From: Escherichia coli
Lineage (GTDB): Bacteria; Pseudomonadota; Gammaproteobacteria; Enterobacterales; Enterobacteriaceae
Length of the DNA stretch: 64,000 nucleotides
Assembly: GCF_030384885.1 (NCBI RefSeq)
Contig: NZ_CP128613.1
Direction: 5' to 3' (one strand)
The notes under the pieces were generated by a model. The model made no database searches, had not been told where the DNA came from, and saw only the letters and a list, made by a program, of their open reading frames with translations. This document shows, piece after piece, positions 4,415 through 63,211 of the stretch. The translations under genes and the position numbers were made by a program. Each line of letters starts with the position of its first letter. Position 1 is the first letter of the stretch.

Positions 4415-5269
4415 TTAACCTGCAATAGCCATTCCTACCGTCATGTGCAGGCCATAAAAGAGCACACGCCCGATCATCTCACCGCCAAGTATGAGGATTA
4501 GCCCCAGAATAAGTCCGGCAACGTGAGGTTCACGGCGACGAATGAGCGGACAAAGCCAGCATCCTAGACCTGTGCATAACAATACCACACGCCAGACCTG
4601 TAAGGAGGCGTAATCTGGTACCAGTGCGCTGGCTTGTTGTACGGATGAGTGAATAGACGCCAGAGACAAACCTTGCAGCACAATCACCCCGGCACAAGCG
4701 ATCAGCGCCAGAACGCTAATGATGGCAAATGGTGTGGTATTAAATGTAACGCGGGCTGCCCGCAGAATTGCGGCAGCAAGTATTGGACCGCTCAATAAAA
4801 CTGTCAGGAAGAAAGCCAGCGTAGTGTAACCGTTATGCCAGGTTGGCACAGTGTCGATTTGATACACGCAGGTCATCATCCAGACGAAAATGACGCCGAG
4901 CGCCATGCTGACAAGTAACCAGAGTTTCCCCAGCGCTTGCGGCATTTTACCAATGACCGCCACCAGCCACCATAATCCGCCAACGGCAAAAAATATTGAA
5001 CCGGCAGCAATCTCGTTACTCAGGCCGGAAGCTCCGATTCGATTCAGCGAGTTAAACGCCCGCAGTGGCGATCCCAGGTGCATGACAGAGGCAATAAACC
5101 CGATGCCCATCAGCAGCCAGAGGAAAAACATGCCACGGACAATACGCTGACGGTCTGCGTCATTTTTGCTGGCGAACCAGCCGATTCCGCTAATAATCAG
5201 CGCGCCTACGACGCATTGGCCCAATACGGTAAAGATAACCAGTGGCCATTCGTGCCATCCATTTCCCAT
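4415..5269 (-). CDS. ynfH: DmsC-family membrane anchor subunit YnfH
   Basis: 284-aa polytopic hydrophobic protein directly downstream of ynfG. Confidence 0.92.
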   Translation of the reverse strand: MGNGWHEWPLVIFTVLGQCVVGALIISGIGWFASKNDADRQRIVRGMFFLWLLMGIGFIASVMHLGSPLRAFNSLNRIGASGLSNEIAAGSIFFAVGGLWWLVAVIGKMPQALGKLWLLVSMALGVIFVWMMTCVYQIDTVPTWHNGYTTLAFFLTVLLSGPILAAAILRAARVTFNTTPFAIISVLALIACAGVIVLQGLSLASIHSSVQQASALVPDYASLQVWRVVLLCTGLGCWLCPLIRRREPHVAGLILGLILILGGEMIGRVLFYGLHMTVGMAIAG

Positions 5270-5270
5270 T

Positions 5271-5888
5271 TTAAACTTCCTCCGGATTAGCCAGGTAACC
5301 AGTGGTATCGCCGGTCGGGCGGCTGTTGGCGTTAGGTTTGATTACGATATTAGGTTTTGTGAAATGCGCGCGCGGCAGTGGCGCGACGGCAGCCAGAGTA
5401 CCGTGTTTCTGGCGCAGCTCTTCAATTGGACCGAACTCAAGTGCACGCAGCGGGCAGGATTCGACACATATGGGTTGTTTCCCCTTGGCGACGCGCGAAT
5501 AACAACCATCGCACTTCGTCATGTGCCCTTTTTCAGCATTGTACTGTGGCGCGCCGTACGGACAAGCCATGTGGCAGTAGCGGCAGCCGATACAAACATC
5601 TTCATCAACCACCACAAAGCCATCTTCACGCTTATGCATTGCGCCGCTGGGGCAGACTTTTGTACATGCGGGGTCATCGCAATGGTTACAGGAGATGGAG
5701 AGATAATAAGCGAACACGTTCTGGTGCCAGACGCCATTATCTTCCTGCCAGTCGCCGCCAGCATATTCATAAACACGGCGGAAACTGACTTCCGGGCCAA
5801 GATCTTTAAAATCTTTGCACGCCAGTTCGCAGGTTTTACAGCCAGTACAGCGGCTGGAATCGATAAAAAATCCATATTGTGTGGTCAT
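5271..5888 (-). CDS. ynfG: DmsB-family 4x[4Fe-4S] electron-transfer subunit YnfG
   Basis: 205 aa with repeated CxxCxxCxxxCP ferredoxin motifs (CTGCKTCELAC, CNHCDDPACTKVCP, CIGCRYCHMACP). Confidence 0.93.
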   Translation of the reverse strand: MTTQYGFFIDSSRCTGCKTCELACKDFKDLGPEVSFRRVYEYAGGDWQEDNGVWHQNVFAYYLSISCNHCDDPACTKVCPSGAMHKREDGFVVVDEDVCIGCRYCHMACPYGAPQYNAEKGHMTKCDGCYSRVAKGKQPICVESCPLRALEFGPIEELRQKHGTLAAVAPLPRAHFTKPNIVIKPNANSRPTGDTTGYLANPEEV

Positions 5889-50327: not shown

Positions 50328-50812
50328 GAGTATTGGTATTCTTATTTCCCTTCTTTAGAGCTGGCTTGTTAAATGCCAGCTTGCAGATTCATCGTTCCAT
50401 CACCAGTACTAAATTCAAGGGAAAATTGCTATTTTTCTTAAAGCATTAAGCATAACCCTTATTTTATAGCGAATATTCCTAAAGGCATTAATGGATGAAA
50501 AAGGGTTTTAATAAACTTCTGTTTTTAGCAATTAGTGCTATTCTTTGTTAAATATGATGATGATAATCTTCTTATTGAAAGAAACAGTTTTCTTATTAAG
50601 CAACAATAACTCATGGTTCATTTTTAAATAAAATAAGAACTATGCGATTTTTAATCTATCGATTAGAAAGTATTAGCAAATTAGCCAAATTGACACCTTC
50701 CCACCTCCAACCAACACTCAATACAGACCTCTGACAACTTAATAAGTTTCATTTTTAACGTCTGATGACTCATCTCTTTCGTGGCTGTATTGTTTGTATA
50801 TGGAGCGTTTAT

Positions 50813-53800
50813 ATGAATAGAATCTATCGCGTGATATGGAATTGCACCCTACAGGTATTTCAGGCCTGCTCGGAATTAACTCGCAGGGTAGGTAAAACAT
50901 CAACGGTTAATTTGCGTAAATCCTCTGGATTGACAACGAAATTCAGTAGATTGACGCTGGGTGTTTTGCTGGCACTAAGCGGTTCAGCGTCTGGTGCGAG
51001 TCTGGAAGTTGATAATGGTCAGATTACCAATATTAATACTGATGTTGCTTACGATGCCTACCTGGTTGGGTGGTATGGCACTGGAGTGCTTAATATTTTG
51101 GCTGGCGGTAATGCCTCCTTAACCACTATTACTACCAGCGTCATTGGTGGTAATGAGGACTCAGAGGGCACCGTTAACGTTTTGGGTGGCACCTGGCGAT
51201 TGTATGATAGCGGAAATAATGCAAGGCCTTTAAATGTGGGTCAATCCGGAACGGGGACGCTGAATATTAAACAGAAGGGTCACGTTGACGGAGGATATTT
51301 AAGGATAGGTTCTTCGACAGGAGGCGTCGGGACGGTCAATGTTGAAGGAGAGGACTCGGTTCTGACGACCGAATTATTCGAAATAGGGAGTTACGGTACA
51401 GGCTCATTAAATATTACGGATAAGGGTTACGTCACGAGTTCAATAGTCGCCATTGTAGGATATCAGGCGAACAGTAATGGTAAGCTTGTCGTTGAAAAGG
51501 GTGGCGAGTGGCTAATAAAAAATAATGATTCCTCAATTGAATTTCAAATTGGTAATCAAGGGACGGGCGAAGCAACTATTCGCGATGGGGGGCTAATTAC
51601 GGCTGAAAATACGATTATCGGTGGCAACCTCACCGGTATCGGAACCCTGAATGTGCAGGATCAAGACTCTGTCATCACGGTACGCAGACTCTATAATGGA
51701 TATTTCGGTAATGGCACAGTCAATATTTCCAATAATGGACTGATTAATAATAAAGAATATTCATTGGTGGGCGTTCAGGACGGGTCCCACGGTGTCGTCA
51801 ACGTGACCGATAAAGGGCATTGGAATTTCCTCGGAACGGGCGAAGCTTTCCGCTATATCTATATCGGTGATGCTGGCGACGGTGAACTTAATGTCTCGAG
51901 TGAAGGCAAAGTAGATTCGGGAATTATCACTGCGGGGATGAAAGAAACAGGCACAGGCAACATTACTGTTAAGGATAAGAACTCCGTTATCACTAATCTC
52001 GGAACTAATCTTGGTTATGACGGCCACGGCGAAATGAATATCAGTAATGAGGGGCTTGTTGTCAGCAACGGAGGAAGCTCACTCGGTTATGGAGAAACCG
52101 GCGTCGGGAAGGTTAGCATCACCACGGGGGGGATGTGGGAGGTCAATAAGAATGTCTATACCACTATTGGTGTTGCGGGCGTCGGAAACCTCAATATCAG
52201 CGATGGCGGTAAGTTCGTATCGCAAAATATTACTTTTTTGGGCGATAAAGCAAGCGGTATCGGCACACTGAACCTGATGGATGCGACATCATCGTTCGAT
52301 ACTGTAGGTATCAATGTCGGTAATTTTGGTAGCGGCATCGTAAATGTCAGTAATGGTGCCACCCTTAATTCAACGGGCTATGGATTTATCGGAGGAAATG
52401 CCTCCGGTAAGGGGATAGTTAATATTTCAACGGATAGTCTCTGGAATTTAAAAACGTCATCTACTAACGCCCAATTGCTACAGGTCGGTGTATTAGGCAC
52501 GGGTGAACTGAATATTACCACCGGAGGTATAGTTAAAGCGCGTGATACACAGATAGCTCTCAATGACAAAAGTAAGGGCGACGTGCGGGTGGATGGGCAG
52601 AACTCTCTTCTTGAAACATTCAATATGAACGTAGGGACGACTGGCACAGGTACGTTAACCCTGACGAATAACGGCACGCTGAATGTCGAAGGTGGAGAAG
52701 TTTACTTAGGTGTTTTTGAGCCTGCTGTAGGAACGCTAAACATTGGTGCTGCTCACGGTGAGGTGGCGGCAGATGCCGGGTTTATCACCAATGCGACGAA
52801 AGTGGAGTTTGGTCTTGGCGAAGGCGTTTTTGTCTTTAATCATACCAATAACAGTGATGCCGGCTACCAGGTCGATATGCTGATTACGGGTGACGATAAA
52901 GACGGAAAAGTGATGCATGATGCAGGCCATACGGTGTTCAATGCAGGGAATACTTATAGCGGTAAAACGCTGGTCAATGACGGCCTCCTGACTATTGCGT
53001 CACATACGGCAGATGGGGTAACAGGCATGGGTTCGAGTGAAGTAACCATTGCAAGCCCCGGTACGCTCGACATTCTCGCATCAACGAACAGCGCAGGAGA
53101 TTACACGCTGACCAATGCGCTCAAAGGCGATGGCTTGATGCGAGTGCAGCTGTCATCCTCCGACAAAATGTTTGGCTTTACCCATGCAACAGGAACTGAA
53201 TTCGCCGGTGTTGCCCAACTGAAAGACAGTACCTTCACACTGGAACGCGACAACACCGCTGCGCTTACTCACGCGATGCTTCAGTCTGACAGTGAAAATA
53301 CCACATCGGTAGAAGTGGGAGAGCAATCCATTGGTGGACTAGCCATGAATGGCGGTACGCTCACTTTCGATACGGATATACCTGCTGCGACGCTTGCGGA
53401 GGGATATATCAGCGTCGATACACTGGTTGTCGGCGCGGGTGACTACACCTGGAAAGGCCGTAACTATCAGGTAAACGGGACGGGCGACGTGCTTATCGAC
53501 GTGCCTAAACCGTGGAATGATCCCATGGCGAATAACCCTCTGACTACGCTCAATTTGCTGGAACACGATGATAGCCATGTCGGCGTTCAACTGGTGAAGG
53601 CGCAAACGGTTATTGGGTCGGGTGGCTCATTAACGTTACGTGATTTACAGGGCGACGAGGTGGAAGCGGACAAAACGTTACACATTGCACAAAACGGAAC
53701 AGTGGTCGCCGAGGGTGATTATGGATTCCGACTCACGACCGCACCTGGTGATGGTTTGTATGTTAACTATGGGCTGAAAGCGCTGAACATCCATGGTGGG

Positions 53801-56233
53801 CAAAAGCTGACGTTAGCCGAACATGGCGGAGCCTATGGCGCAACGGCCGATATGTCGGCAAAAATCGGTGGTGAAGGGGATCTGGCAATCAATACGGTGC
53901 GACAGGTTTCGCTTTCCAACGGTCAGAACGACTATCAGGGGGCAACCTATGTTCAGATGGGGACATTACGTACCGATGCGGATGGCGCGCTGGGCAATAC
54001 TCGGGAACTGAACATCAGCAACGCGGCCATCGTCGATCTTAATGGATCGGAGCAGACGGTAGAGACATTCACCGGGCTGATGGGTTCGACTATTTTGTTC
54101 AAAGAAGGTTCGCTGACGGTGAATAAAGGTGGGATCAGTCAGGGCGAACTGACAGGTGGCGGAAACCTGAATGTTTCAGGGGGAACACTGGCTATCGAGG
54201 GGCTTAATGCACGCTACAATGCGTTAACCAGCATTAGCCCAAATGCGGAAGTCAGCCTCGACAATACGCAGGGGTTAGGCAGAGGAAATATTGCCAATGA
54301 CGGTCTGTTAACGCTAAAAAACGTGACCGGCGAACTGCGCAATAGCATAAGCGGTAAAGGTATCGTGAGCGCAACCGCCAGCACAGACGTAGAGCTGGAT
54401 GGCGATAATAGCCGCTTTGTGGGGCAATTCAACATCGATGCAGGCAGCGCGCTCAGCGTCAACGAGCAGAAAAACCTGGGTGATGCTTCCGTTATCAATA
54501 ATGGCCTGCTCACCATCGCCACTGAGCGTAGCTGGGCGATGACGCACAGTATCACCGGTAGCGGCGATGTGACAAAACTGGGGACCGGGATCCTGACTCT
54601 TAACAACGATTCCGCGGCGTATCAGGGTACGACGGATATCGTGGGTGGTGAAATTGCTTTCGGTTCCGACTCTGCCATTAATATGGCAAGTCAGCACATT
54701 AATATCCATAACAGCGGTGTGATGTCGGGAAATGTCACCACTGCAGGTGATGTGAACGTTATGCCTGGGGGGACACTGCGTGTCGCCAAAACCACTATCG
54801 GCGGCAATCTGGAGAATGGTGGCACGGTTCAAATGAATAGCGAAGGGGGGAAACCGGGGAATGTACTGACCGTTAACGGCAACTATACCGGAAACAATGG
54901 CCTGATGACGTTCAACGCGACGCTGGGCGGCGATAATTCACCCACGGATAAAATGAACGTGAAAGGCGATACCCAAGGGAACACTCGCGTTCGGGTTGAT
55001 AACATTGGCGGCGTCGGTGCACAAACGGTCAACGGTATTGAACTCATTGAGGTTGGCGGTAATTCTGCAGGCAACTTCGCGCTGACCACCGGAACTGTCG
55101 AAGCTGGGGCTTACGTCTACACACTGGCTAAAGGGAAGGGGAATGACGAGAAAAACTGGTATCTAACCAGTAAATGGGAAGGCGTAACGCCACCGGATAC
55201 ACCCGATCCCATCAATAATCCTCCTGCTGTGGATCCGGAAGGCCCATCAGTTTATCGCCCGGAGGCCGGAAGCTATATCAGCAACATTGCCGCAGCCAAC
55301 TCGCTGTTTAGCCATCGTTTACACGACCGTCTGGGTGAGCCGCAGTATACAGATTCACTGCATTCTCAGGGTTCGGCAAGCAGTATGTGGATGCGTCATG
55401 TCGGAGGGCACGAACGTTCAAGGGCCGGTGACGGTCAGCTAAATACACAGGCTAACCGCTATGTATTGCAGCTAGGCGGCGATTTGGCGCAGTGGAGTAG
55501 CAACGCGCAGGATCGCTGGCATCTCGGCATCATGGCAGGCTATGCCAATCAGCACAGTAATACTCAGAGTAATCGTGTGGGTTATAAATCGGATGGGCGC
55601 ATCAGCGGTTACAGCGCTGGGATGTACGCGACCTGGTATCAGAACGATGCGAATAAGACCGGCGCTTATGTTGACAGCTGGGCGCTGTATAACTGGTTTG
55701 ATAACAGCGTCAGTTCCGATAACCGTTCTGCTGACGACTATGATTCTCGCGGTGTGACGGCCTCTGTTGAGGGTGGATATACCTTTGAAGCGGGAACATT
55801 TAGCGGCAGCGAAGGGACGCTGAATACCTGGTACGTCCAGCCACAGGTGCAAATCACCTGGATGGGTGTGAAAGATTCTGACCATACCCGGAAAGACGGA
55901 ACACGCATTGAAACGGAAGGTGACGGAAACGTGCAAACTCGACTTGGGGTGAAAACCTACTTGAACAGTCATCACCAGCGCGACAATGGTAAACAGCGTG
56001 AGTTCCAGCCTTACATTGAAGCGAACTGGATCAACAACAGCAAAGTCTACGCCGTGAAGATGAATGGTCAAACCGTAAGCCGTGATGGTGCGCGTAATCT
56101 CGGTGAAGTACGTACCGGGGTTGAGGCGAAAGTAAATAACAACCTTAGCCTGTGGGGGAATGTTGGTGTGCAACTAGGTGATAAAGGCTATAGCGATACT
56201 CAGGGCATGCTGGGTGTGAAATATAGCTGGTAA
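50813..56233 (+). CDS. yneO: Full-length AIDA-I/pertactin-type (type Va) autotransporter adhesin; K-12 yneO (ydeK/ydeU) pseudogene locus
   Basis: 1806 aa from ATG 50813 (GGAG 8 nt upstream). It has an extended signal peptide (MNRIYRVIWNCTLQVFQACSELTRR...ALSGSASGA) and a long passenger with many G-x-G-T-L-N-I beta-helix repeats. A Pro-rich linker PPDTPDPINNPPAVDPEGP precedes a C-terminal beta-barrel ending GVKYSW. Confidence 0.88.
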   Translation: MNRIYRVIWNCTLQVFQACSELTRRVGKTSTVNLRKSSGLTTKFSRLTLGVLLALSGSASGASLEVDNGQITNINTDVAYDAYLVGWYGTGVLNILAGGNASLTTITTSVIGGNEDSEGTVNVLGGTWRLYDSGNNARPLNVGQSGTGTLNIKQKGHVDGGYLRIGSSTGGVGTVNVEGEDSVLTTELFEIGSYGTGSLNITDKGYVTSSIVAIVGYQANSNGKLVVEKGGEWLIKNNDSSIEFQIGNQGTGEATIRDGGLITAENTIIGGNLTGIGTLNVQDQDSVITVRRLYNGYFGNGTVNISNNGLINNKEYSLVGVQDGSHGVVNVTDKGHWNFLGTGEAFRYIYIGDAGDGELNVSSEGKVDSGIITAGMKETGTGNITVKDKNSVITNLGTNLGYDGHGEMNISNEGLVVSNGGSSLGYGETGVGKVSITTGGMWEVNKNVYTTIGVAGVGNLNISDGGKFVSQNITFLGDKASGIGTLNLMDATSSFDTVGINVGNFGSGIVNVSNGATLNSTGYGFIGGNASGKGIVNISTDSLWNLKTSSTNAQLLQVGVLGTGELNITTGGIVKARDTQIALNDKSKGDVRVDGQNSLLETFNMNVGTTGTGTLTLTNNGTLNVEGGEVYLGVFEPAVGTLNIGAAHGEVAADAGFITNATKVEFGLGEGVFVFNHTNNSDAGYQVDMLITGDDKDGKVMHDAGHTVFNAGNTYSGKTLVNDGLLTIASHTADGVTGMGSSEVTIASPGTLDILASTNSAGDYTLTNALKGDGLMRVQLSSSDKMFGFTHATGTEFAGVAQLKDSTFTLERDNTAALTHAMLQSDSENTTSVEVGEQSIGGLAMNGGTLTFDTDIPAATLAEGYISVDTLVVGAGDYTWKGRNYQVNGTGDVLIDVPKPWNDPMANNPLTTLNLLEHDDSHVGVQLVKAQTVIGSGGSLTLRDLQGDEVEADKTLHIAQNGTVVAEGDYGFRLTTAPGDGLYVNYGLKALNIHGGQKLTLAEHGGAYGATADMSAKIGGEGDLAINTVRQVSLSNGQNDYQGATYVQMGTLRTDADGALGNTRELNISNAAIVDLNGSEQTVETFTGLMGSTILFKEGSLTVNKGGISQGELTGGGNLNVSGGTLAIEGLNARYNALTSISPNAEVSLDNTQGLGRGNIANDGLLTLKNVTGELRNSISGKGIVSATASTDVELDGDNSRFVGQFNIDAGSALSVNEQKNLGDASVINNGLLTIATERSWAMTHSITGSGDVTKLGTGILTLNNDSAAYQGTTDIVGGEIAFGSDSAINMASQHINIHNSGVMSGNVTTAGDVNVMPGGTLRVAKTTIGGNLENGGTVQMNSEGGKPGNVLTVNGNYTGNNGLMTFNATLGGDNSPTDKMNVKGDTQGNTRVRVDNIGGVGAQTVNGIELIEVGGNSAGNFALTTGTVEAGAYVYTLAKGKGNDEKNWYLTSKWEGVTPPDTPDPINNPPAVDPEGPSVYRPEAGSYISNIAAANSLFSHRLHDRLGEPQYTDSLHSQGSASSMWMRHVGGHERSRAGDGQLNTQANRYVLQLGGDLAQWSSNAQDRWHLGIMAGYANQHSNTQSNRVGYKSDGRISGYSAGMYATWYQNDANKTGAYVDSWALYNWFDNSVSSDNRSADDYDSRGVTASVEGGYTFEAGTFSGSEGTLNTWYVQPQVQITWMGVKDSDHTRKDGTRIETEGDGNVQTRLGVKTYLNSHHQRDNGKQREFQPYIEANWINNSKVYAVKMNGQTVSRDGARNLGEVRTGVEAKVNNNLSLWGNVGVQLGDKGYSDTQGMLGVKYSW

Positions 56234-56714: not shown

Positions 56715-58036
56715 TGCCTAAACTTGTCACTTGGATGAACAACCAGCGGGTAGGCGAGTTAACGAAGTTAGCCAATGGCGCGCACACCTTTAAGTATGCA
56801 CCGGAGTGGTTAGCCAACCGTTATGCCAGACCGTTATCACTTTCGCTGCCATTGCAGAGGGGGAATATCACCTCTGATGCCGTATTTAACTTCTTCGATA
56901 ACCTGTTACCCGATAGCCCGATTGTACGTGACCGGATCGTTAAACGTTATCATGCTAAATCCAAGCAACCGTTTGATTTATTGTCAGAAATAGGGCGAGA
57001 TAGCGTTGGTGCCGTAACGTTATTACCCGAAAATGAAACCATAACGCGCCCGATAATGGCATGGGAACAGCTCACTGAAGCCAGGCTTGAAGAAGTATTA
57101 ACGGCTTATAAAGCAGATATCCCTCTAGGCATGATTAGAGAAGAAAATGACTTTCGCATCTCGGTTGCTGGCGCGCAGGAGAAGACAGCGCTGCTCAGAA
57201 TAGGCAATGACTGGTGCATTCCGAAAGGAATAACGCCGACGACGCACATCATTAAATTACCGATTGGCGAAATCAGGCAGCCCAATGCGACGCTCGATCT
57301 CAGCCAAAGCGTTGATAATGAGTATTACTGTCTGCTGCTGGCGAAAGAACTTGGGTTGAATGTGCCGGACGCAGAAATCATTAAAGCGGGAAATGTGCGC
57401 GCGTTAGCGGTCGAACGTTTTGACAGGCGTTGGAATGCTGAGCGAACGGTTTTACTTCGCTTGCCACAGGAGGATATGTGTCAGACATTCGGTTTACCTT
57501 CATCGGTGAAATATGAATCAGATGGAGGCCCAGGCATCGCGCGGATCATGGCTTTTTTGATGGGGTCCAGCGAGGCGCTGAAAGATCGCTATGATTTTAT
57601 GAAGTTTCAGGTGTTCCAGTGGTTGATTGGCGCAACGGATGGCCATGCAAAAAACTTCTCCGTATTTATTCAGGCTGGCGGCAGTTATCGACTCACGCCA
57701 TTTTACGACATCATTTCAGCATTTCCGGTATTGGGTGGCGCAGGAATACACATCAGCGATCTCAAACTGGCAATGGGGCTTAACGCATCCAAAGGCAAAA
57801 AAACGGCAATCGATAAAATTTATCCGCGACATTTTCTGGCGACAGCAAAGGTGCTGAAATTTCCGGAAGTGCAGATGCATGAAATCCTGAGTGACTTTGC
57901 CAGAATGATTCCGGCAGCACTGGATAACGTGAAGACTTCATTACCGACAGATTTTCCGGAGAACGTGGTGACGGCAGTTGAAACCAATGTGTTGAGGTTG
58001 CACCGTCGGTTAAGCCGAGAATACGGTATTAAGTAA
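56714..58036 (+). CDS. hipA: Ser/Thr kinase toxin HipA
   Basis: 440 aa from MPKLVTWMNNQRVGEL. The ATG overlaps the hipB TAA by 1 nt. G22, S150, D291 and D309 are all present by hand count, so this is the wild-type allele and not hipA7. Confidence 0.94.
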   Translation: MPKLVTWMNNQRVGELTKLANGAHTFKYAPEWLANRYARPLSLSLPLQRGNITSDAVFNFFDNLLPDSPIVRDRIVKRYHAKSKQPFDLLSEIGRDSVGAVTLLPENETITRPIMAWEQLTEARLEEVLTAYKADIPLGMIREENDFRISVAGAQEKTALLRIGNDWCIPKGITPTTHIIKLPIGEIRQPNATLDLSQSVDNEYYCLLLAKELGLNVPDAEIIKAGNVRALAVERFDRRWNAERTVLLRLPQEDMCQTFGLPSSVKYESDGGPGIARIMAFLMGSSEALKDRYDFMKFQVFQWLIGATDGHAKNFSVFIQAGGSYRLTPFYDIISAFPVLGGAGIHISDLKLAMGLNASKGKKTAIDKIYPRHFLATAKVLKFPEVQMHEILSDFARMIPAALDNVKTSLPTDFPENVVTAVETNVLRLHRRLSREYGIK

Positions 58037-58112: not shown

Positions 58113-58144
58113 GGTGCGCATAATGTCAACGCGTTATGTTGAAA
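58113..58144 (+). other. dif: dif-like Xer site forming the left junction (attL) of the filamentous prophage
   Basis: GGTGCGCATAA (exact XerC arm of E. coli dif), then TGTCAACGCG (10 nt), then TTATGTTGAAA (9/11 to XerD arm TTATGTTAAAT). It starts 76 nt after the hipA stop, where K-12 dif lies by my recollection. Confidence 0.75.
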
Positions 58145-58178: not shown

Positions 58179-58210
58179 CTTTAGCATAACGTCATTGTGC
58201 GAACCAATAG

Positions 58211-59140
58211 CTACTTTTTCGTATAACTCTCTTCGCATTTAGCCAAAAACAGCAGATTAGTAGCGGTTAAATGAAGGGTATAACTCGCTAAATACTCAGG
58301 AACTTTTGTTATTTCTGCCCCTTGTCCATGTCCACCTTCTTTATTTCGAATGGTTGGAATACCACTCTCAAGTAGAATTCTTATTGAAGAAAATTGATTC
58401 TGGAGGTATTCAGGTACTAAATTATTTGCCAAACAACTGTTAATTAGTTTTTTAGCTGTGTCAGTATCATTAAATTGCCAAGAATGTTTTTTATGTATGG
58501 CTTTCATTAGACTTTCAAAAGATTTGAGGCAATCATTTAAACATTCTTTATATCGCTGATGTCTATAATGCTCATGGGCGGATAAAAACTCATCGTTTGC
58601 TCCGTTATAACTCTTGTTCTTACCAAGAATCTGAAGCGTAGGCTTTACAACATCAGAATGAATGAATTGTGAGTCAACTTTAACCAACTCTCCTGACTCA
58701 AATTGATATCCAAGACCTGCTTCTTTAAACCTGATATTAAGTTCTTCAATAGCATCATCAGGACTTTGCTTTACTAACCCTCTGAATTTCCACTCATTTG
58801 ATCTTATATACCCGTCTATCAGTTTGAAACATATCTCAATGATATCCAAGCATTTTTCATGATCTCTCTCAGCTAGGAAATAGTCAAAAATTGCCCCGAA
58901 ATTCGATTCAGGATACTGTTTGAGAGAGAATACACCATATTCCTTACACAGCGTTTTATGAACGAGTCTGTAAAGCTTACTTGCTTCCGTTTCATAGTCA
59001 CTATCTTCACCGATAGTATCTCTTACAATATGAACAACCTGAACACGAAATGCATTTGGTATATTCGTGTATTGGTAAACATCAGCTACTTCACCTCTTA
59101 ATTTTTTTTGTCTTTTTGAAAATAATTCGAATATAGCCAA
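58211..59140 (-). CDS. AbiJ-NTD4-like / HEPN-motif protein (candidate abortive-infection or toxin RNase)
   Basis: 309 aa from a TTG start with GAGGA 7 nt upstream. The N-terminus MAIFELFSKRQKKLRGEVADVYQYTNIPNAFRVQVVHI resembles the AbiJ N-terminal domain 4 / STM4504-type family (from memory). The C-terminal R265-N-K-E-G-G-H271 (58328-58348) fits the HEPN R-x4-6-H motif. The gene is AT-rich: hand counts gave 18/60 and 23/60 G+C on two lines. Confidence 0.7.
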   Translation of the reverse strand: MAIFELFSKRQKKLRGEVADVYQYTNIPNAFRVQVVHIVRDTIGEDSDYETEASKLYRLVHKTLCKEYGVFSLKQYPESNFGAIFDYFLAERDHEKCLDIIEICFKLIDGYIRSNEWKFRGLVKQSPDDAIEELNIRFKEAGLGYQFESGELVKVDSQFIHSDVVKPTLQILGKNKSYNGANDEFLSAHEHYRHQRYKECLNDCLKSFESLMKAIHKKHSWQFNDTDTAKKLINSCLANNLVPEYLQNQFSSIRILLESGIPTIRNKEGGHGQGAEITKVPEYLASYTLHLTATNLLFLAKCEESYTKK

Positions 59141-59223: not shown

Positions 59224-59646
59224 TTACCAGTAATATGAGTTTCTTCTGTGCCACCAATAAAGAAGTCCGTATCCAATGATAAGAATTCCGAAAAACATCA
59301 ACGACATTCCCCAGCCAGTTCCGTACCACGAAACCATATCATCGAAAACTAACCCACCCATTTCACGAACTCCGGCTGCTTCCTTAAGAATTGGTTTGAA
59401 TACCGGAATCAGAAGGGCGATCGCAAGTGGAGCACCCCAGCGAACAAGACCAGTTTCCATTTTGATCCCGAAAAAGATCCCCGCACCGACAACAAGCAAC
59501 CAGACTATCAGGCCAGGCGCAGTTTCTAGTGCTGTTTGCCATTCAACATCGAAAGTTTTCATTAGCCAGGCAACAACTGCCAGACAGAAAGCAAATACGC
59601 CTACAACAACCAGTTCAACGCCGCTTGTTTCGTTATTTCTACTCAT
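59224..59646 (-). CDS. Small four-TM membrane protein of unknown function (prophage cargo)
   Basis: 140 aa from ATG 59646 (MSRNNETSGVELVVVGVFAFCLAVVAWLM...), with four hydrophobic helices. The 189-aa ORF-track form would overlap the upstream gene by 59 nt. It is GC-richer than its neighbours (33/60 on one line). Confidence 0.6.
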   Translation of the reverse strand: MSRNNETSGVELVVVGVFAFCLAVVAWLMKTFDVEWQTALETAPGLIVWLLVVGAGIFFGIKMETGLVRWGAPLAIALLIPVFKPILKEAAGVREMGGLVFDDMVSWYGTGWGMSLMFFGILIIGYGLLYWWHRRNSYYW

Positions 59647-59674
59647 CCTTTTGATCCTTTGTTGCTGTTCAAAA

Positions 59675-59717
59675 TCCGCACAATAAAGAACGTGCAGTGT
59701 AGGTAATACTGCACGTT
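59675..59717 (-). terminator. Hairpin (terminator or attenuator) between the RHH gene and the 4-TM gene
   Basis: Perfect 10-bp stem AACGTGCAGT/ACTGCACGTT (59689-59698 / 59708-59717) with a 9-nt loop, followed on the minus strand by CTTTATTGTG. Confidence 0.55.
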
Positions 59718-59734
59718 TGTACCATTCGTGGTAC

Positions 59735-59917
59735 TTAATCCTTTTGTTTGGCAGACATGAGATCTTCTGCTGCATCTTTAGAGTAGTTATCAATCAGATA
59801 ACCTAAAATCTCTGTCCATGTAATTGTTTTTCCTAGTTTTACACTGGCATTTATAGCCAGTCGTTCTAGTTTCATTTTTCTTTCTTCCGTCACGTTATAA
59901 GTCGTGCGCTTTGCCAT
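59735..59917 (-). CDS. Small ribbon-helix-helix-like protein, probable prophage regulator
   Basis: 60 aa, MAKRTTYNVTEERKMKLERLAINASVKLGKTITWTEILGYLIDNY... shows a beta-strand then two helices. It is divergent from the replication gene, the position of repressors such as RstR in integrating inoviruses. Confidence 0.5.
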   Translation of the reverse strand: MAKRTTYNVTEERKMKLERLAINASVKLGKTITWTEILGYLIDNYSKDAAEDLMSAKQKD

Positions 59918-59964
59918 TTTTTACGCTCGTTCAATGCAATATTTGAAGTGAGTATACATGCTCA

Positions 59965-60043
59965 TGAACTCATATCATCCAAGCCTCTTGAACTCACTAG
60001 CTCACTGGTGTAATGTTTAAACACTAATGAACTACTGAACTCA
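59965..60043. repeat. Iterated TGAACTCA motifs in the divergent phage control region
   Basis: TGAACTCA occurs at 59965, 59989 and 60036, and TGAACTAC at 60028, all in the same orientation, between the RHH gene and gII. Confidence 0.6.
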
Positions 60044-60086
60044 TGTGTTAGTAAGTCGTCATTTTTGTAATTTTGAGGATTTATTC

Positions 60087-61139
60087 GTGATCGATTGGCT
60101 TACCGGGATTTTCCCTTGCACACACAAACCGCTTCCGGCGGGGAGTGTTGTCAGCGTTGATGCTGACGGTGCAATTGAGTGGGAAACCGTTAAGCGACTG
60201 ACTGTTCGCGGTTCGCATGAAGCAACGATGAAAGTACGATCGATAGGATCTAATGGCGAAGGTAAAGCGACACATTTGTACATTGATGGTAATCCTTCCA
60301 AGTTTCTGCAGGGGCATTCTGTTGTTGGGTCGGATGATATACAAGGGCTCATGTTGACGGTCTATGCCAGGATTTTATCCTTATTGAATATTCCTCATGA
60401 TTTAGCGGCTTATAAAGCCGTTATGGCAGGTCAGTATAAAATTTCACGTATTGACATTAATTACATGTATTCATTATCTACGCTGGAAAATGTCAGATCA
60501 TGGCTTTATGCCGCCGAATTTAAAGCTAAAACACGCCATGGTCGCGCATGTGGGAAAGGCGGTACAGTTTATTTAGGTAAAAACTCCCGTCGATGGAGTC
60601 TGAAATTTTATTCAAAATATGATGAACACGTTTCTGGTAAAAAAGGGCACCAGATAGCCGAAGAGTTTGTACGAGCCGGGTTACTGGACTGGACGAAAGA
60701 TAAATTACGTATTGAATTAACATTAAGAACAACTGAGCTTATTGATTTAAATTTAACGCTTGGCGCTAACTGGAATATGAAAACACCACGTCAATTATTC
60801 TCTGAATATGTAGGGAGAATAGAAATGAATCAGAATGCTATTTTAAGTGATGAAAAAATAACGAAACTGCCAAGAAAAATACAGTCAACTTATTTACTTT
60901 GGAAACAAGGGGCTAACATGAAAGAAATGTTACCTCATAACACTTTTTATCGCCATAGAAGAGAATTGCTTTCGTTCGGTATCGATATTAATTTCTATTG
61001 TGATTCACCAGACTCTAATAACGTTGTTCCGCTAATAAGAACGCTGGAAGCCAAGCCAGCGGAAATCCCCTTATGGATTTATGAGAAAGGTTTTATTTTC
61101 GATTACAACCGTATTTCGCACGCCAGTAGCTGGCATTAA
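60087..61139 (+). CDS. Filamentous-phage replication initiation protein (gpII homologue)
   Basis: 350 aa from GTG 60087 (GAGGA 7 nt upstream), VIDWLTGIFPC... Matches to f1 gpII motifs: GNPSKFLQGHSVVGS vs ASPAKVLQGHNVFGT, ISRIDINY vs ISRIDATF, NNVVPLIRT vs NNVVPLVRF. Confidence 0.85.
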   Translation: MIDWLTGIFPCTHKPLPAGSVVSVDADGAIEWETVKRLTVRGSHEATMKVRSIGSNGEGKATHLYIDGNPSKFLQGHSVVGSDDIQGLMLTVYARILSLLNIPHDLAAYKAVMAGQYKISRIDINYMYSLSTLENVRSWLYAAEFKAKTRHGRACGKGGTVYLGKNSRRWSLKFYSKYDEHVSGKKGHQIAEEFVRAGLLDWTKDKLRIELTLRTTELIDLNLTLGANWNMKTPRQLFSEYVGRIEMNQNAILSDEKITKLPRKIQSTYLLWKQGANMKEMLPHNTFYRHRRELLSFGIDINFYCDSPDSNNVVPLIRTLEAKPAEIPLWIYEKGFIFDYNRISHASSWH

Positions 61140-61960: not shown

Positions 61961-63211
61961 ATGAAAAGGAAAATATTAATTCTTTCCGCTGTCCTCATTT
62001 CTCCTTTTTCACATGCTGAGTCATGGGAAAGCATTACTAAATCCACTTATCAAAGTTCTGCCTATGCTGAAAGTAAGCAAATAACCAATCAGGATGGCTC
62101 TAAGATAACGGTTTACTATATTGATGCTGCTATGCAGGCCTCCGCTTGTCAGGGTGCTAAATCCAGTGCTCAGAGTGTATTTACTCGGATTAAACCAACT
62201 TATGAGGGTATCTGGCCTGATTCTGAATTCCGTCTTGTTTTTACTGGCGATTGTACTTACAGCGATTCACCAGGGCAGAAGGATAAATATTGGTCTTTAA
62301 CGGCTTATATTGTTGGTAATATTCAGCGTTCTGTTCCTGATGAAAAACCTACTGACCCGACACCAGAAGAAATTTGTGAAGCGAAGCCGCCAGAAGAAGG
62401 TGTATTTAATAATGTTGATTCATATGATGGTGGTCGCTATATCTACTATAACGGCTGTGAATATGAGGCTACTGGTGTCATTGTTTGTCAGGGTGATGGT
62501 ACTGTTTGCGCTGCAACATGGAAGCCTACAGGTGCTGTAGCTGACCCCTCTGATAAACCCTCAACCCCCCAAAATGGTGGTGGTGAGTCTGGCGGTGGTG
62601 AGTCCGGCGGTGGTGAGTCCGGTGGTGGTGAGTCTGGCGGTGGTGAGTCCGGTGGCGGTAGTTCTGGCGGTGGCTCTAGTGGTTCCAGTCTTTCTAAAGG
62701 TGATATTCAGTCTGCGATCGAAGGTGCTTCACCCAAAATAGCCAGCGATATTCATGATAAATTAACGGAGAAAGACACTTCATCAGATGATAAAAAAAAT
62801 GCCGATGAACAAACCAGGAATAATATAAATCGTCTTGACGATTCCATTAACAATCTTACGCGGGGGGCTGGCCGTTTTGCTGACCCTTCAGGTGGTGATT
62901 CTCGTTATGGAAAGGGCGACTCTGAATTAGATGGCGCTTCTACTTTAGCTGATTCTGAATTGGGAATTGAAAAGGATTCTCACGGTGCTTTATGGGAAGC
63001 ATTTTTAAATAAAGGTGCTATGCTGCCTAATTTACCCAATGGTAACGGCTGCTCTGATTTTATTATTTTTCCCGGAGAGGTTTATCAGATTGATATTGGT
63101 TGCGATAAATTACTGACTATTAAAGATGTTCTTTCATGGGTTTTTTATTGCCTTACGTTCTGGTATGTCTTTACTTCTTTAACTTCATTGCTTCGCAAAG
63201 GGGGTGAGTGA
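61961..63211 (+). CDS. Adsorption / minor coat protein gpIII homologue
   Basis: 416 aa from ATG 61961, with signal peptide [19 protein letters not shown]|ES and a Gly-rich linker. The C-terminal anchor [40 protein letters not shown] resembles f1 IDCDKINLFRGVFAFLLYVATFMYVFSTFANILRNKES. Confidence 0.88.
62576..62689 (+). repeat. Tandem 15-bp coding repeats ([10 protein letters not shown] linker of gpIII)
   Basis: Five successive GGTGGTGAGTC(T/C)GG(C/T) units followed by degenerate GGGSS units encode (GGGES)5[10 protein letters not shown]. Confidence 0.9.

Follow-up and report, generated by a model that had tools for sequence, protein, structure and literature searches.

What are the short repeats for that lie between two divergent genes of an Escherichia coli filamentous prophage, one encoding a 60-residue protein of the ribbon-helix-helix (RHH) type and the other the rolling-circle initiator, gene II? 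The locus stands towards the end of a 64,000-nucleotide stretch of contig NZ_CP128613.1 (assembly GCF_030384885.1), hereafter the window, and the region in question (59918-60086) is exactly the gap from the ATG of the leftward 60-residue reading frame (59735-59917) to the GTG of gene II (60087). The reading that we favour, at a probability of about 0.78, is that these 169 bp form the repressor-operator switch of a prophage of the UPphi901 type and that the 60-residue protein binds the repeats.

Anatomy and conservation of the repeats

The element TGAACTCA occurs at 59965, 59989 and 60036 and TGAACTAC at 60028, all four on the plus strand, and the copies at 60028 and 60036 abut (60028-60043); direct reading of the sequence confirms the positions listed in the initial annotation. 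That annotation also stressed the common orientation of the four copies, which is true in the window but not conserved among relatives. The box, TGA-RY-TCA, is pseudo-palindromic (TGAACTCA reads TGAGTTCA on the opposite strand), and its orientation flips between lineages because it is palindromic except for the two central bases. Weaker, degenerate boxes adjoin every strong box in exact 8-bp register; the three composite elements are referred to below as the putative operators OA, OB and OC (Table 1).

The clustering of the boxes is unusual by several measures. TGAACTMM has eight matches on both strands of the window, and four of the eight fall within the 79 bp spanned by the copies described here. 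Dinucleotide shuffles of the 169 bp contained any 6-mer four times in 27 of 5000 cases and any 8-mer three times in 7 of 5000, and 11 of 1596 segments of 169 bp sampled from the 64 kb held any 6-mer at least four times. The strongest test against chance is the comparative box density: across seven diverged homologous loci, TGA[AG][CT]TCA is present 21 times in 1,088 bp of intergenic DNA versus zero times in the other 32,415 bp. In a complete 8.3-kb prophage unit, three exact boxes lie within the intergenic region, and the single further one is inside gene h2. The core boxes appear to be under purifying selection among close relatives (Brenneria, Phytobacter), in which 1 of 32 core-box columns varies versus 42 of 137 other columns (Fisher p = 0.0006).

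The spacing of the boxes is conserved as well: 34-48 nt separate box A from the start codon of the regulator gene, box B follows after another 24-25 bp, and box C 45-53 bp beyond box B. The strong box of OA keeps its distance from the start codon in eight of nine lineages, L022 having a degenerate TGAACATT instead, and the OA core is unchanged in the close relatives L005 and L011. Within OB, TTGAACTCA, 24-25 bp from the OA box, is invariant in all eight aligned lineages. At the position equivalent to OC, a triple box in 8-bp register is found in L012, L014, L016, L018, L022 and L027, and a triple box of another sequence in phage I2-2 and L029; the OC core is constant in close relatives except for one column.

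Positional conservation suggests two divergent promoters (Table 1). The putative leftward promoter, that of the regulator gene, is the sole promoter-like match of a consensus scan in the intergenic region. By our own reading, a TAnnnT hexamer (TATACT, TAGAAT, TAAGAT, TATAAT) stands at a constant distance from box A in other lineages; the -35 hexamer is poorly conserved across lineages. For gene II, we read TTGAAC-N17-TAnnnT as position-conserved in all lineages (TAGTAT, TATTAT, TATATT, TATCTT, TATGTT). OA overlaps the -10 hexamer and spacer of the putative leftward promoter, OB the -35 hexamer and spacer of the putative gene II promoter, and OC lies directly downstream of the -10 hexamer and presumed transcription start of the latter. 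Starts are predicted near 60023 (rightward) and near 59944 (leftward).

Such an overlap raises the possibility that the boxes are sites of a host factor, or repeated promoter elements resembling a TTGAAC -35, and that the small protein is uninvolved. Box B does coincide with the putative -35 TTGAAC and, all hosts being Enterobacterales, a shared factor is conceivable. However, boxes A and C keep the 8-mer although they lie outside the -35 of any conserved promoter, prophages with a helix-turn-helix (HTH) regulator in the same host species and at the same insertion site are free of boxes, and the box sequence varies with the β-strand of the adjacent protein inside one host group. We know of no E. 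coli regulator site that the 8-mer matches. Overall, we consider a host factor very unlikely.

Two further elements in the gap were set aside. A terminator-like hairpin, CACTAGCTCACTGGTG (59995-60010), is not conserved even in close relatives and is therefore treated as a by-product of the second OB box, and an alternative -10, TGTAAT (60066-60071), was rejected as its positions vary among close relatives. Inspection by eye revealed no LexA-type CTG-N10-CAG site in the gap, and no antirepressor (RstC) was evident by eye.

Boxes follow the regulator and not the initiator

The initial annotation offered a second interpretation, in which the repeats are replication iterons. They would then be sites of the gene II protein at the viral-strand origin. 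The repeats do lie directly upstream of gene II, direct repeats are typical of initiator sites, and in the Ff phages (f1/M13) the plus-strand origin is located upstream of gene II, with repeats beside the nick site. The two interpretations differ in the gene that the boxes should accompany. Homologues of the regulator were collected and their loci fetched (the L numbers used here); exact-protein look-ups with diverged RHH homologues, together with a scan of viral contigs, yielded the informative ones, and a scan of genome contigs with gene II gave only eight loci.

TGA(AC/GT/GC)TCA is present two to four times in the gap of all seven lineages whose regulator has the strand K-R-x-T-Y-N-(V/I)-T-E, and is absent from 12 intergenic regions belonging to other RHH subgroups or to the HTH type. 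The seven box-bearing lineages represent three initiator classes without significant mutual similarity, namely the UPphi/I2-2 class, a second Phage_CRI/G2P_X_C class and Rep_trans; the boxes thus also stand beside two classes unrelated to the gene II examined here. CUS-1 (strain UTI89) and Ypfphi (Yersinia pestis) have a gene II 86% identical to this one together with an HTH regulator and no boxes in the gap, and I2-2, whose gene II is 56% identical, is likewise without TGARYTCA boxes. Box types differ by RHH subgroup inside the second initiator class, with ATGCAT in L024 (another subgroup) and TGARYTCA in L012 to L018. What does track the gene II class of this prophage is not the boxes but a hairpin, AACGTGCAGTGTAGGTAATACTGCACGTT, at 59689-59717. 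Because the same gene II class occurs with other regulators and the same regulator type with other initiators, the boxes belong to the small protein, not to gene II, and we regard the iteron interpretation as exceedingly unlikely.

Other subgroups of the regulator come with other boxes, again repeated pseudo-palindromes of 8 bp in equivalent positions. The strand RTTYTL is accompanied by TGAATT(C/T) (seven copies), RTTMAI and RTTMSI by TGCATG/ATGCAT, RTTASI (the I2-2 type) by tandem GTATAC boxes, RGDTTVRIN (the type of the Vibrio environmental RstR and of phage VAI1) by GCATGC, and xDTTVAIN by TTACATGTAA. In Vibrio phage VAI1 (L033), the gap between the RstR-like and RstA-like genes (1371-1500) contains GCATGC three times as well as abutting TGCATGCG/TGTATGCG, and the tandem layout of 8-bp boxes seems, from these sequences, to extend to Vibrio members of the family. 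The proposal of the initial annotation that this is a divergent control region with the repeats as RHH operators is thus supported, the box following the RHH gene across initiator classes, changing with the RHH β-strand and missing where an HTH regulator adjoins a closely similar gene II.

Regulator gene and gap together (~59746-60087) constitute a cassette that is swapped between otherwise homologous prophages. In a comparison with CUS-1-type prophages, homology extends over query positions 1-96 (window 59650-59745) and resumes at query position 439 (window 60088), with unrelated DNA and an HTH gene between. Identity of UPphi to CUS-1/Ypfphi is 88% up to 59745 and ~80% from 60088 on, with none between; the replacement segment of CUS-1/Ypfphi consists of a 148-aa HTH gene and an unrelated 171-bp gap, and the 96-bp stretch to its left is conserved. 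The gap of CUS-1 and Ypfphi has inverted 16-mers of its own; that of CUS-1 (L003, 6544-6714 in UTI89) carries, as read by eye, two inverted copies of ATGCTCA(T/G)(T/A)TCTGACA and a third, weaker copy, which are candidates for the HTH regulator's own operators. Among 5,426 complete E. coli genomes, 47 have a near-full-length match of the UPphi type, these near-identical prophages lying at the equal position and often in tandem; 112 records fall in the 80-90% identity band, and in those among them that were listed the gene is of the HTH type or annotated 'transcriptional regulator'. The regulator is divergent from the initiator in all homologous loci whose neighbourhood was examined, except in phage If1, which has no initiator opposite.

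The neighbourhood also bears on a third reading, in which the RHH protein is an antitoxin paired with the 140-aa membrane protein encoded downstream, the boxes autoregulating that operon and not phage replication. This appears highly improbable. The two genes are separated by an 88-bp gap with two conserved hairpins, and CUS-1, which has an HTH protein in place of the RHH protein, retains the 140-aa gene with 97% conservation. In every other RHH lineage the downstream gene is a different one (113, 369, 89, 76, 128 or 88 aa, or a Fic protein), and the sole constant neighbour is the divergent replication initiator. Two of the three putative operators, moreover, are located on the gene II side.

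The regulator family and the proposed switch

The 60-aa regulator (MAKRTTYNVTEERKMKLERLAINASVKLGKTITWTEILGYLIDNYSKDAAEDLMSAKQKD; 'hypothetical protein' in RefSeq) is predicted to have a β-α-α fold, in which a short N-terminal strand is followed by two helices. It has no sequence match in the Protein Data Bank (PDB) and belongs to the PHROG family phrog_2503, which carries no function. A weak, gap-free alignment places R4, T6 and N8 of the regulator opposite R4, T6 and T8 of CopG, which we take to be base-contacting residues. In the regulator family R4 and T6 are invariant or nearly so, and position 8 varies between subgroups.

Homologues of the regulator include the environmental RstR of CTXphi strain IB1617/pre-CTX (GenBank GQ466611, ACV95592) and the RstR-like protein of Vibrio phage VAI1 (YP_010768644), with 40.7-42.4% identity over 57 residues and tblastn E values of 2e-6 to 6e-6. 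The value of 40.7% over 57 aa is for the environmental RstR of IB1617 and pre-CTX, an allele that, like the VAI1 protein, takes its name from its position. Together with the cassette exchange, this identity of ~41% bears out the resemblance to the rstR/rstA lysogeny switch of CTXphi that the initial annotation had seen in the layout. The environmental rstR allele is present in RS1 elements of recent epidemic Vibrio cholerae outbreak strains (PMC11395875). We found no literature that links rstR to an RHH fold or maps operators of the environmental RstR/VAI1 type. The analysis thus assigns a predicted fold and a probable function to the unnamed family phrog_2503, which takes in the rstR allele of epidemic V. 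cholerae RS1 as well as overlooked reading frames of phages I2-2 and If1.

In I2-2 (L002, NC_001332), the homologue lies at 2720-2918 on the minus strand, in the annotated 'intergenic region', and is frameshifted in the deposited sequence, either through a sequencing error or through decay in a non-integrating phage. Intact regulators of the I2-2 type (65-66 aa), which share 80-91% identity with the repaired reading, are encoded on contigs of at least ~7 kb, mostly ~7.1 kb, and in plasmid-labelled records. If1 (L032, NC_001954) has an intact, unannotated homologue of 63 aa, 58.5% identical, in its 'major intergenic region' (Table 1). No operator-like gap precedes this If1 gene, the upstream DNA running into ORF348. 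The N-terminus of ORF348 (KAYKFRLEPTPEQ...) resembles, to our eye, a TnpB of the IS200/IS605 type, which would suggest an insertion next to the If1 regulator gene.

We propose the following switch. Each 8-bp TGA(A/G)(C/T)TCA unit has the size expected for the two-stranded β-ribbon of one RHH dimer, and neighbouring dimers may bind OA, OB and OC cooperatively, in the manner of MetJ at tandem met boxes and of omega at arrays of heptads. Changing a box from TGAACTCA to TCAACTGA is predicted to abolish binding of the regulator. Occupancy of OB would cover the -35 hexamer and spacer of gene II, the presumed target of repression, and occupancy of OC the first transcribed bases; together they would silence gene II/X and the phage genes that follow it, which would halt both rolling-circle replication and the production of virions. 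Negative autoregulation would come from OA, which lies over the putative promoter of the regulator gene itself. Regulator and operators would move as one exchangeable immunity cassette, comparable to rstR with ig-2 in CTXphi.

Several points weigh against this proposal. The RHH assignment comes from an AlphaFold monomer that was built from a shallow alignment of 13 sequences, has a pLDDT of 78.8 and leaves the N-terminal strand unformed; Foldseek with this model gave no significant match; the protein falls in no Pfam family at E ≤ 0.1; and hhalign is weak, with a probability of 5.6% for CopG and below 1% for omega and Arc. The β-strand subgroups outside TYN mostly comprise one to three lineages each, and L048 has only degenerate forms of the motif of its subgroup. 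The putative gene II promoter is weak in this prophage, with 7 of 12 consensus matches, and was missed by the consensus scan, and the OB box contains its -35 hexamer, so that promoter function might by itself account for the conservation of this box. What the comparison shows is the anatomy of the locus, the predicted fold, the way in which box and protein occur and vary together, and the exchange of the cassette; DNA binding, the activity and position of the promoters, the transcription starts, repression as the sign of the regulation, and cooperativity are matters that we infer. Finally, UPphi virions are released without induction (PMC7307601), which means that repression cannot be complete.

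The boxes are very probably the binding sites of the small regulator, and the proposed repressor-operator switch is of an ordinary phage kind, but one not described for the UPphi group. The paper that defines UPphi-type phages mentions no repressor, operator or transcription (PMC7307601). Prophages of this type occur in hundreds of clinical Enterobacterales genomes, at dif and often in tandem, and release virions. Naming the likely switch, with its regulator gene, three operators and two promoters, offers a handle on prophage quiescence, heteroimmunity, and derepressed or cured strains.

A wider and more tentative idea, which we think somewhat less likely to be right than wrong, is that the family forms a natural specificity series for RHH-DNA recognition, whose heteroimmunity groups move as cassettes. 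All members would use 8-bp boxes, TG-N4-CA, that abut in 8-bp register, and the constant outer bases would be read by the invariant strand residues Arg and Thr. The inner four bases would follow one strand position, with Asn for AACT/AGTT, Thr for AATT, Ala for CATG and Ser for TATA; the predicted partner boxes of changes at position 8 are TGAATTCA for N8T, TGCATGCA for N8A and TGTATACA for N8S. The specificity cassettes would then have moved between at least three unrelated replication modules, in enterobacterial and in Vibrio filamentous phages. With the unannotated gene present in I2-2 and If1, phages regarded as non-temperate, replication of these two would likewise be under repressor control now or would have been until recently.

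Prophage context and comparison with known systems

The end of the window is E. coli chromosome in which hipB/hipA end at 58036 and a dif-like site at 58113 is followed by the filamentous prophage. Such prophages correspond to the phages that Shapiro and Putonti described as the UPphi901 type (PMC7307601). Besides gene II, the prophage encodes genes V, VIII, III and VI. Gene II matches Phage_CRI (7e-71) and G2P_X_C (2e-29) in Pfam, and its start agrees with the RefSeq 350-aa protein of near-identical prophages and with the onset of gene II homology in CUS-1 and I2-2. I2-2 is the closest characterised phage and was found by protein-level searches only, megablast of the prophage against the phage collection having given no match.

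Table 1. Coordinates of the control region, its putative operators and promoters, and neighbouring features (window positions unless stated otherwise)
Feature	Position	Strand	Details
Divergent control region	59918-60086		169 bp; regulator gene ATG to gene II GTG
Putative operator OA	59949-59972		TGAGTATA/CATGCTCA/TGAACTCA, three abutting 8-bp boxes; strong box 59965-59972
Putative operator OB	59989-60004		TGAACTCA/CTAGCTCA, two abutting boxes
Putative operator OC	60028-60051		TGAACTAC/TGAACTCA/TGTGTTAG, three abutting boxes
Putative regulator promoter	59978-59951	-	-35 ATGATA 59978-59973; 16-nt spacer; -10 TATACT 59956-59951
Putative gene II promoter	59988-60016	+	-35 TTGAAC 59988-59993; 17-nt spacer; -10 TAATGT 60011-60016
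Regulator gene	59735-59917	-	60 aa, RHH type
Gene II	60087-61139	+	rolling-circle initiator; GTG start; Shine-Dalgarno GAGGA 60075-60079
First hairpin	59689-59717		29 nt, AACGTGCAGTGT-AGGTA-ATACTGCACGTT; just past the regulator stop codon
Second hairpin	59719-59734		compensatory changes, GTACCAttcgTGGTAC here versus GTCTCAttccTGAGAC in CUS-1
140-aa membrane protein gene	59224-59646	-	
AbiJ-like gene	58211-59140	-	AbiJ_NTD4 plus DUF7014
First dif-like site	58113-58144	+	GGTGCGCATAA-TGTCAACGCG-TTATGTTGAAA
Second dif-like site	58179-58205	-	GGTTCGCACAA-TGACG-TTATGCTAAAG
If1 regulator homologue	locus 1492-1683; record ~5143-5301	-	

Two hairpins lie beyond the regulator gene (59689-59734). The first hairpin does not vary between UPphi, CUS-1, Ypfphi and I2-2, although its flanks cannot be aligned in I2-2, and loci with other initiators lack it; in single-stranded form, the two hairpins together fold much better than shuffled sequences do (z = -5.2). 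As the hairpin tracks gene II, the pair is a candidate plus-strand origin; a terminator is possible too. An element on the minus strand at ~59679-59691, GTTCTTTATTGTG, resembles what we take to be the f1 nick site, and was rejected as a coincidence, since its strand is the wrong one and I2-2 does not conserve it.

The two dif-like sites are inverted, ~90 bp apart, and flank a GC-rich hairpin. CUS-1 and the tandem prophage L001 have this pair too, although the first site of L001 has another spacer than that of the window. Between dif and the 140-aa gene is a slot that is occupied by the AbiJ-like gene in this prophage, by two small reading frames in other UPphi copies and by a 369-aa reading frame in CUS-1; since its contents differ between prophages, it holds variable cargo, here apparently an anti-phage defence gene. 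Gene III contains a run of GGGES repeats (62574-62700), whose number varies between isolates (PMC7307601). Directly upstream of hipBA lies a reading frame of 1,822 aa (50765-56233) that looks, by eye, like an autotransporter.

The proposed switch can be compared with rstR/ig-2/rstA of CTXphi. In both, a regulator is divergent from the initiator of a dif-integrating filamentous prophage, with several operators (here putative) in the gap, and regulator and gap are exchanged as a cassette between conserved flanks, as happens among heteroimmune CTXphi variants. A candidate origin in the hairpins beyond the regulator gene would match the CTXphi layout too, in which the origin lies in ig-1 beyond rstR, and the inverted dif-like pair recalls the CTXphi attP, a folded single strand. 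Unlike the canonical El Tor RstR, a larger HTH protein with long footprints, the regulator is here of a 60-aa RHH type with 8-bp boxes. The environmental RstR and VAI1 proteins are true homologues, with the same divergent position beside rstA and repeated short tandem pseudo-palindromes in the gap; they differ in two extra β-strand residues and other side chains (KRGDTTVRIN), in their boxes (GCATGC/TGyATGCG), and in their Vibrio hosts and RstA of the Rep_trans type.

Among other RHH proteins, omega (pSM19035) and CopG (pMV158) are repressors of plasmid replication or copy number that use 7-bp heptads and a 13-bp element, respectively, and their similarity to the regulator is not significant. 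Arc and Mnt (P22 immI) come from a tailed phage and have operators of 21 and 17 bp with two half-sites; no homology to Arc was detected. The putative operator layout, two to three abutting 8-bp pseudo-palindromes, resembles the met boxes of MetJ, where every box is occupied by one RHH dimer and adjacent dimers touch.
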